From Enterobacter phage CC31, in the sequence record NC_014662.1: DNA of 64,000 nt; one strand, 5' to 3'. Made by a program: the position numbers and the translations under genes. This document shows, piece by piece, positions 39,147-39,910 of the stretch. How positions within the stretch are numbered: the stretch's first letter is position 1; every line of letters starts with the position of its first letter. The notes under the pieces were generated by a model that did no database searches, had not been told where the DNA came from, and saw only the letters and a program-made list of their open reading frames with translations.

Positions 39147-39455
39147 CTATTTTATTCCGCGCGATGCAATTGTGTTCTGTCGTTTAACACCAGTTTGTTT
39201 AAAGTCATGATTGTCGATTTGATCAGTACGAGCAACGCCAAATGATGATTTGATCTTAGCTTTAGAGCCTTTAGTTATAGAAACAAACATCTCAGAAGAG
39301 CCTTTCTTAAAGTCCGAGGCGGATACTTCAACGCCGTTCTTAGCAAGTGACTTCAGAATTGCCTCTGCATACTCATCATCAAGACTTGCTTGAGTATTAA
39401 TGACGAATGTCTTTGGCGCAGTAGCTTCGTTGATAAATTCTTGATAGGTTTTCAT
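39147..39455 (-). CDS. internal head protein (IPI-position) with capsid-targeting N-terminus
   Basis: 102 aa; [11 protein letters not shown] capsid-targeting sequence; adjacent to 57B as ipI is in T4. Confidence 0.7.
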
Positions 39456-39910
39456 TTAAGGTCTTCTGCCCAATCTAGTTTAAGTGGTTCTTTGTATTCA
39501 CGGTCCAGTACAACTGGTATCTGAACTTCACCCTTGAATGATAAAGGACCTACGTTATAAGACAACGTAATGTGAGGAGTGTAGTCAGGAAAATCATGCG
39601 TTGCACCTAATGCACGAGCATAACGATGTCGATGCTTAAGATATTCAGAATCTAGCACCAACACAAGTACTGGTGATTCTCCATGGTCCCAAACCTCAAG
39701 ATGTCCTTTACGAGCGACCTCAAAGCTACCTGACGAGCATGTATAAGGTACATTTACTCTTGAATAGCAAATCGTTGAGTGAATTTTGTGTCTAGGAACT
39801 GGATTAGGAACCTTCAACTCTCGCTGAAGGCTCTCAATAGCATCCAATGTTAAATCGGAGAATTTAGCTGCAACGTATAATCCAGAACCGAGGTCCTGGA
39901 AATTAATCAT
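39452..39910 (-). CDS. 57B: 57B / Acb1-like 2H phosphoesterase (anti-CBASS cyclic-nucleotide phosphodiesterase homolog)
   Basis: 152 aa at the T4 57B position upstream of 57A; two H-x-T/S-x motifs (HSTI, HITL) consistent with 2H fold; functional assignment recalled from literature. Confidence 0.6.

Follow-up and report, generated by a model that had tools for sequence, protein, structure and literature searches.

Does Enterobacter phage CC31 encode its own version of Acb1, the anti-CBASS enzyme that phage T4 makes from gene 57B? The question is raised by an ORF in a stretch of 64,000 nucleotides of the CC31 genome (NC_014662.1), referred to here as the window, and all positions below are those of the window.

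The acb1 ORF and its closest relatives

39452..39910, minus strand: acb1 (orthologue of T4 57B), encoding a predicted 2H phosphodiesterase of 152 aa; the TGA stop codon at 39452-39454 is included.

The ORF listing of the window holds a 152-codon ORF that runs from ATG to TGA exactly where a preliminary description of this DNA had placed a 152-aa homologue of 57B/Acb1, and it is read from the minus strand. The proposed homology was borne out by Pfam, by comparison with T4 and by a deposited protein already named after Acb1. The product scored 197.4 bits (E = 1.2e-58) against Pfam PF23474 (Acb1), 170 bits above the Pfam gathering score of 27 bits that serves as the cut-off, and its residues 10-150 correspond to profile positions 2-144 of 144, which is the full profile. 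It aligned with T4 57B/Acb1 (NP_049750.1) without gaps over 152 of 152 residues at 80% identity. WZB37615.1 from Erwinia phage COW86c (record PP597396.1), deposited as 'Acb1-like anti-CBASS protein', is 100% identical to the CC31 protein, and so is the protein of Enterobacter phage AS6. No NCBIfam model matched it. Judged by its sequence, the ORF is a real, intact gene and a clear orthologue of T4 57B/Acb1, and we call it acb1.

Among solved structures, Acb1 of Erwinia phage FBB1 (PDB 7T26/7T27) matched residues 9-149 with E = 3.7e-59. A single-sequence AlphaFold2 model, made with no alignment supplied, reached a pLDDT of 49.7 and a pTM of 0.42; given this pLDDT, homology to 7T26 is the basis for the fold. 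The solved chain of FBB1 Acb1 is 62% identical throughout its length, and from this we infer that the acb1 product has the compact single-domain 2H phosphoesterase fold. Both HxT motifs and the lid tryptophan of FBB1 Acb1 are aligned with those of the CC31 protein, and the synteny is the same. FBB1 Acb1 differs in having F at the position of W74 and a one-residue insertion after position 74.

The 4 kb around acb1 share 99.2-99.3% DNA identity with Enterobacter phages vB_VIPECLUMC02, AS6 and PG7, all of the genus Karamvirus (Tevenvirinae, Straboviridae). The window is that of a PG7-like Karamvirus, an Enterobacter phage; Enterobacter is the host genus of the PG7-like group, whereas that of T4 is Escherichia. 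When COW86c is compared along with the PG7/AS6 group, the protein shows 100% identity and the 4 kb around acb1 have 96.9-99.3% DNA identity, but between tRNA-Gln and the e-region genes these relatives have an extra block of about 8.3 kb, with tRNAs and small ORFs.

Using tblastn, matches to the acb1 protein were found in 1,472 of 50,697 phage records; the match covered at least 80% of the length in 1,352 records and had at least 95% identity in 31. Depositors have mostly labelled the homologues 'RNA ligase' or 'hypothetical protein', and PHROG 755, the family of the acb1 protein, is named 'RNA ligase'. This family label is misleading and should read Acb1. The gene itself is an ordinary copy of a characterised and curated phage family, already known and not new; its correct annotation is the main gain, with little significance beyond that.

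Catalytic residues, ligand contacts and predicted function

Activity-guided fractionation of T4 lysates showed that their capacity to degrade 3'3'-cGAMP is due to T4 57B, and structures of the FBB1 enzyme were solved (Hobbs et al. 2022, PMC9117128). Cleavage of both 3'3'-cGAMP and cAAA was seen with T4 Acb1 and with each of nine more homologues spanning the family tree, in a metal-independent reaction that passes through a 2',3'-cyclic phosphate and gives a linear product (PMC9117128). T4 lacking acb1 suffered a replication loss of more than 300-fold on CBASS-carrying hosts and grew normally on hosts without CBASS; T4 Acb1 also blocked the cAAG-activated effector Cap4, and the panel of effectors that was reconstituted included some from Enterobacter cloacae (PMC9117128). 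PG7, Enterobacter and Karamvirus do not appear among the tested homologues in the main text and supplements of that paper, and a literature search combining Karamvirus, Enterobacter phage or COW86c with Acb1 found no paper mentioning Acb1.

In T4 Acb1 the catalytic HxT/HxT tetrad consists of H44, T46, H113 and T115, and the H44A/H113A enzyme is catalytically dead (PMC9117128). Residues Y12, W74, F107 and W147 stack on the bases, E141 contacts the adenine N6, and a lid (residues 145-152) closes over 3'3'-cGAMP (PMC9117128). This C-terminal lid is required for activity (bioRxiv 10.1101/2025.08.21.671373). Residue numbers in PMC9117128 are those of T4, and since the alignment to T4 is gapless, they can be transferred directly to the CC31 protein; counted on the crystallised chain, the second catalytic histidine of FBB1 Acb1 is residue 114. 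The corresponding features of CC31 are as follows.

39770..39781, minus strand: first catalytic motif, H44-S45-T46-I47 (CAC TCA ACG ATT), located by sequence reading and a regular expression.
39563..39574, minus strand: second catalytic motif, H113-I114-T115-L116 (CAC ATT ACG TTG), located in the same way.
39455..39478, minus strand: C-terminal lid, residues 145-152 (LDWAEDLK), with the base-stacking W147, located by alignment with T4.

The two H-x-T/S-x motifs mentioned in the preliminary description are H44-S-T-I and H113-I-T-L. The acb1 protein has exactly two H-x-T motifs among its eight histidines, which by a rough estimate, and with no computed statistic, is weakly improbable by chance on its own. 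The significance of the assignment comes from the homology statistics for PF23474 and 7T26, not from the motif count. The preliminary description had named alignment to T4 Acb1 as the check, and loss of the catalytic histidines as an outcome that would speak against it. Both H44 and H113 are kept, as are T46 and T115, with the same residues at the same positions as in T4. The stacking residues Y12, W74, F107 and W147 and the adenine-reading E141 are likewise all identical, so that 9 of 9 functionally defined residues of T4 Acb1 are conserved. In the lid, LDWAEDLK replaces LDWADDLK of T4, with D149E as the sole difference. Across an alignment of eight divergent homologues from six Straboviridae genera, with identity down to 32%, Y12, H44, T46, H113 and T115 are invariant (8/8), and positions 74 and 107 are aromatic throughout. 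The 30 substitutions that separate the CC31 protein from T4 Acb1 are clustered at residues 2-9 and 75-81; residues 75-81 are seven consecutive substitutions right after the stacking W74.

With these residues in place, the ORF very probably encodes a functional orthologue of T4 Acb1. The fold, substrates, chemistry and anti-CBASS phenotype of its product are those predicted from the T4 and FBB1 experiments. The protein would be a small, metal-independent 2H phosphodiesterase that, during infection, binds cyclic di- and trinucleotides made by the CD-NTases of host CBASS, such as 3'3'-cGAMP, cUA, cAAA and cAAG; the ligands expected are CBASS signals with at least one adenosine. The aromatic residues would stack on the bases, E141 would read the adenine and the C-terminal lid would cover the ligand. 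The enzyme would then strain the ligand to bring about the attack of a 2'-OH on the 3'-5' bond, and the two HxT motifs would cleave the 3'-5' bond 3' of an adenosine by way of a 2',3'-cyclic phosphate intermediate. The linear product would be unable to activate CBASS effectors, and abortive infection would be averted.

The database labels point to another function, in which the acb1 product would be an RNA-end-healing enzyme, either a LigT / 2'-5' RNA ligase or a 2',3'-cyclic phosphodiesterase acting on cleaved RNA or tRNA ends. Besides the name of PHROG 755, many GenBank records read 'RNA ligase' or 'RNA 2',3'-cyclic phosphodiesterase', a tRNA cluster is located some 1.3 kb away from acb1, and the chemistry of Acb1 itself passes through a 2',3'-cyclic phosphate. 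The LigT / 2'-5' RNA ligase superfamily (PF13563) shares with Acb1 the two HxT/S motifs, the metal-independent acid-base chemistry and this intermediate, but the substrates of its enzymes are RNA ends and not cyclic oligonucleotide signals. The match of the acb1 protein to PF13563 (2_5_RNA_ligase2) was weak, with E = 0.0088 over residues 70-123 only, and its 16.5 bits fall below the cut-off of 27, compared with 197 bits for Acb1. 'RNA ligase' is the name of a PHROG family, for which we found no backing experiment, whereas the 80%-identical T4 protein is a cGAMP-degrading enzyme whose loss leaves T4 normal in the absence of CBASS. The residues specific for cyclic nucleotides, namely the stacking aromatics, E141 and the lid, are all conserved in CC31. 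We consider a role in RNA-end healing very unlikely.

Another member of the 2H structural group of T4 Acb1 is PDE-9 (9Q2G, 9Q2Y; deposited as 'Anti-CBASS protein Acb1'). PDE-9 degrades 3'3'-cGAMP, largely spares 2'3'-c-di-AMP and has an N-terminal lid (Doherty et al. 2025, bioRxiv 10.1101/2025.08.21.671373), whereas the lid of the acb1 protein is C-terminal and of the T4 type. The acb1 protein matched PDE-9 over residues 9-119 only (E = 1.4e-5). With this partial alignment and the lid at the other end, we did not assign acb1 to the PDE-9 type.

PDE-9 bears on a further reading, in which acb1 encodes an Acb1-family enzyme whose substrate preference has shifted from that of T4 Acb1. The preference might be directed toward cAAG/cAAA of Enterobacter CBASS or of type III CRISPR, or might spare 2'3'-c-di-AMP, the decoy signal of Panoptes, and give no trigger to this system. 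What decides specificity within one 2H group is the core of the enzyme and not its lid; while PDE-9 avoids 2'3'-c-di-AMP, over-expressed T4 Acb1 degrades it and activates Panoptes (bioRxiv 10.1101/2025.08.21.671373). The wholly substituted segment 75-81 lies beside W74, where sequence and length vary throughout the family. Set against this, the known contact residues are all identical to those of T4, 10 of 10 tested Acb1 homologues cleave 3'3'-cGAMP and cAAA, and PDE-9 is far more distant and differs in its lid. A shifted preference is thus an unlikely reading, with a small chance of being right, and an enzyme with the substrates of T4 Acb1 is preferred.

Gene order, expression and selection

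The genes next to acb1 and the candidate promoter of the block are listed here.

40158..40886, minus strand: gene 1, dNMP kinase (Pfam DNMK, E = 1.6e-95).
39907..40161, minus strand: 57A, tail-fibre chaperone (Pfam GP57, 30.6 bits; PHROG 1002, E = 3.6e-26).
39147..39455, minus strand: internal head protein gene, Ip7-type, 102 aa (PHROG 2667, E = 1.8e-42).
42868..42875, minus strand: T4-type late-promoter consensus TATAAATA, 29 nt upstream of the gene 4 start.

The order on the minus strand is gp4-gp2-gp3-gp1-57A-acb1-internal head protein gene, which matches 4-2-3-1-57A-57B-ipI in T4. Gene 4 functions in head completion, gene 2 encodes the DNA end protector and gene 3 functions in tail completion. 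As in Straboviridae, acb1 is placed directly downstream of 57A within the gp3-gp1-57A block, and the order gp3-gp1-57A-57B is kept in Tequatrovirus, Roskildevirus, Biquartavirus, Krischvirus, Lazarusvirus and Schizotequatrovirus. The 57B-like position given in the preliminary description, upstream of 57A and downstream of an ipI-like gene, stood as a matter of gene order, but its wording is true in plus-strand coordinates only. In the direction of transcription the reverse applies: 57A comes before acb1, and the internal-protein gene after it.

The label 'ipI-like' for this neighbour had to be given up. The gene belongs to PHROG 2667, an internal head protein family, and is annotated in relatives as 'Ip7 protein' or 'internal head protein', but T4 ipI gave no tblastn match anywhere in the 64-kb window. 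The locus differs from that of T4, where the downstream neighbour is IpI. The absence of a T4 ipI homologue from the window fits a variable internal-protein locus. The N-terminus of the 39147..39455 product presumably resembles the capsid-targeting leader of T4 internal proteins.

Both junctions of acb1 are 4-nt ATGA overlaps: the TGA stop of 57A overlaps the acb1 ATG, and the acb1 stop overlaps the ATG of the internal head protein gene. The 57A/57B junction of T4 has a 4-nt overlap too (4408-4411 of the T4 sequence compared). The overlaps suggest translational coupling of acb1 to 57A and to the internal-protein gene. Such an arrangement could also let the frame persist for the sake of downstream translation, and acb1 would then be a decayed, non-functional remnant kept between two coupled genes. 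This is extremely improbable. Between acb1 and T4 57B the DNA identity is 71%, and with dS at about 1.9, near saturation, and dN at 0.20, dN/dS is 0.10; these values mark acb1 as protein-coding and as subject to strong purifying selection. The gapless full-length alignment, the intact catalytic and binding residues and the numbers of phage records with matches of at least 95% identity or at least 80% coverage given above argue against decay in the same way, and for a functional acb1.

Within the co-directional block, the site at 42868-42875 is the only exact match to the late consensus on the same strand upstream of acb1. In T4 infection, Acb1 activity begins at about 15 min (PMC9117128). From the sequence, acb1 may be carried on a late polycistronic transcript from this site, which would fit the time of onset in T4. 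From the acb1 start (39910) as far as the candidate late promoter at 42.87 kb, the MotA-box middle-promoter pattern had no match. The scan of 38.9-41.7 kb for sigma-70 promoters and terminators was uninformative: promoter-like sites numbered 5, where shuffles gave an expectation of 7.0, and terminator-like sites numbered 2, where 1.5 were expected.

Elsewhere in the window, two near-identical MotA-box-like middle-promoter matches, TGCTTAAAG...TTGTTATTAT, were seen at 37913-37937 and 38692-38716, both on the minus strand; one of them heads the tRNA cluster and the other lies upstream of the ORF at 38462-38701. Over the whole window the MotA-box-like pattern is enriched, with 17 matches against 6.0 expected from shuffles. 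The spacer at 39082-39146 (minus strand), past the internal-protein gene, contains a hairpin with a perfect stem of 7 bp, GGGCTAT-GATACT-ATAGCCC, which no T-run follows. This hairpin may serve in RNA processing or stability at the end of the 57A-acb1-internal protein unit.

The acb2 gene, a putative nucleotidyltransferase and a deletion in the tRNA region

Three further ORFs of the window are listed here.

29708..29989, minus strand: acb2, homologue of T4 vs.4 (tblastn with T4 Vs.4: 63% identity, E = 4e-31).
35713..36630, minus strand: 305-aa ORF with DUF7277 and DUF7275 domains (Pfam); PHROG 2141, of unknown function.
36660-37055, minus strand: ORF adjacent to the 305-aa ORF.

The acb2 product scored 59.8 bits against Pfam PF24729 (Acb2_Tad1_hairpin; cut-off 27). 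The gene lies about 9.5 kb from acb1, so that the two are separate loci. Acb2 is a cyclic-nucleotide sponge that sequesters signals. By homology, the phage carries both known anti-CBASS strategies, a predicted Acb1 nuclease and a predicted Acb2 sponge, as T4 does. If the substrate spectrum of the acb1 product were shifted, the division of labour between acb1 and acb2 would differ from that in T4. Like Acb1, Apyc1 (MBL fold, anti-Pycsar), the ring nuclease AcrIII-1, poxvirus poxin and Acb2 are viral proteins that remove host cyclic-nucleotide signals; unlike Acb1, they have unrelated folds and different substrates, and Acb2 sequesters rather than cleaves. The presence of acb1 and acb2 is useful for host-range prediction and for choosing a therapeutic Karamvirus against Enterobacter cloacae complex strains with CBASS or, conversely, with Panoptes.

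The preliminary description had also held that an anti-CBASS function makes a nearby nucleotidyltransferase operon more interesting. This operon is probably the 305-aa ORF together with the ORF at 36660-37055. In the 305-aa ORF, Pfam found DUF7277 and DUF7275 only and no nucleotidyltransferase domain, and no solved relatives were found in the PDB by the single sequence or by a 7-sequence profile. However, a few depositors name its homologues 'nucleotidyltransferase', and G6-S7 and D25-x-D27 are invariant across seven diverse phage homologues; this GS...DxD motif suggests a nucleotidyltransferase of the Pol-beta type. The 305-aa ORF is 100% identical to the PG7 protein and is present in 731 phage records. 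It lies about 2.8 kb from acb1 in CC31 and about 11 kb from it in related phages, because CC31 has a deletion of 8,284 bp between the two. A functional link of acb1 with the 305-aa ORF was rejected, since the proximity is not conserved in relatives, and the interest attached to the operon is not supported.

The deleted block is present in Karamvirus CW742, where it lies between the e-region ORFs and tRNA-Gln; the window junction at 37070-37074 was compared with positions 115030 and 123314 of the CW742 record. Besides a homing endonuclease and numerous small ORFs, the block missing from CC31 contains 11 genes for tRNAs (Thr, Leu, Arg, Cys, Met, Phe, Pro, Gly, Trp, Ser and His). A microhomology of 5 nt, GTACC, forms the junction, and no record in the phage collection spanned it. 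The breakpoint falls inside tRNA-Gln (37064-37137, minus strand), whose 3' acceptor strand with CCA reads TACCCCAGCCA in relatives and TACACTAGCAGC in CC31. ARAGORN and Rfam (55.9 bits) still call this tRNA; with its acceptor strand and CCA replaced, the CC31 tRNA-Gln may be defective. An eighth tRNA, at 38026-38110 (minus strand), scored 39.1 bits with Rfam and is absent from the ARAGORN calls; COW86c has an annotated tRNA-Tyr at the corresponding position.
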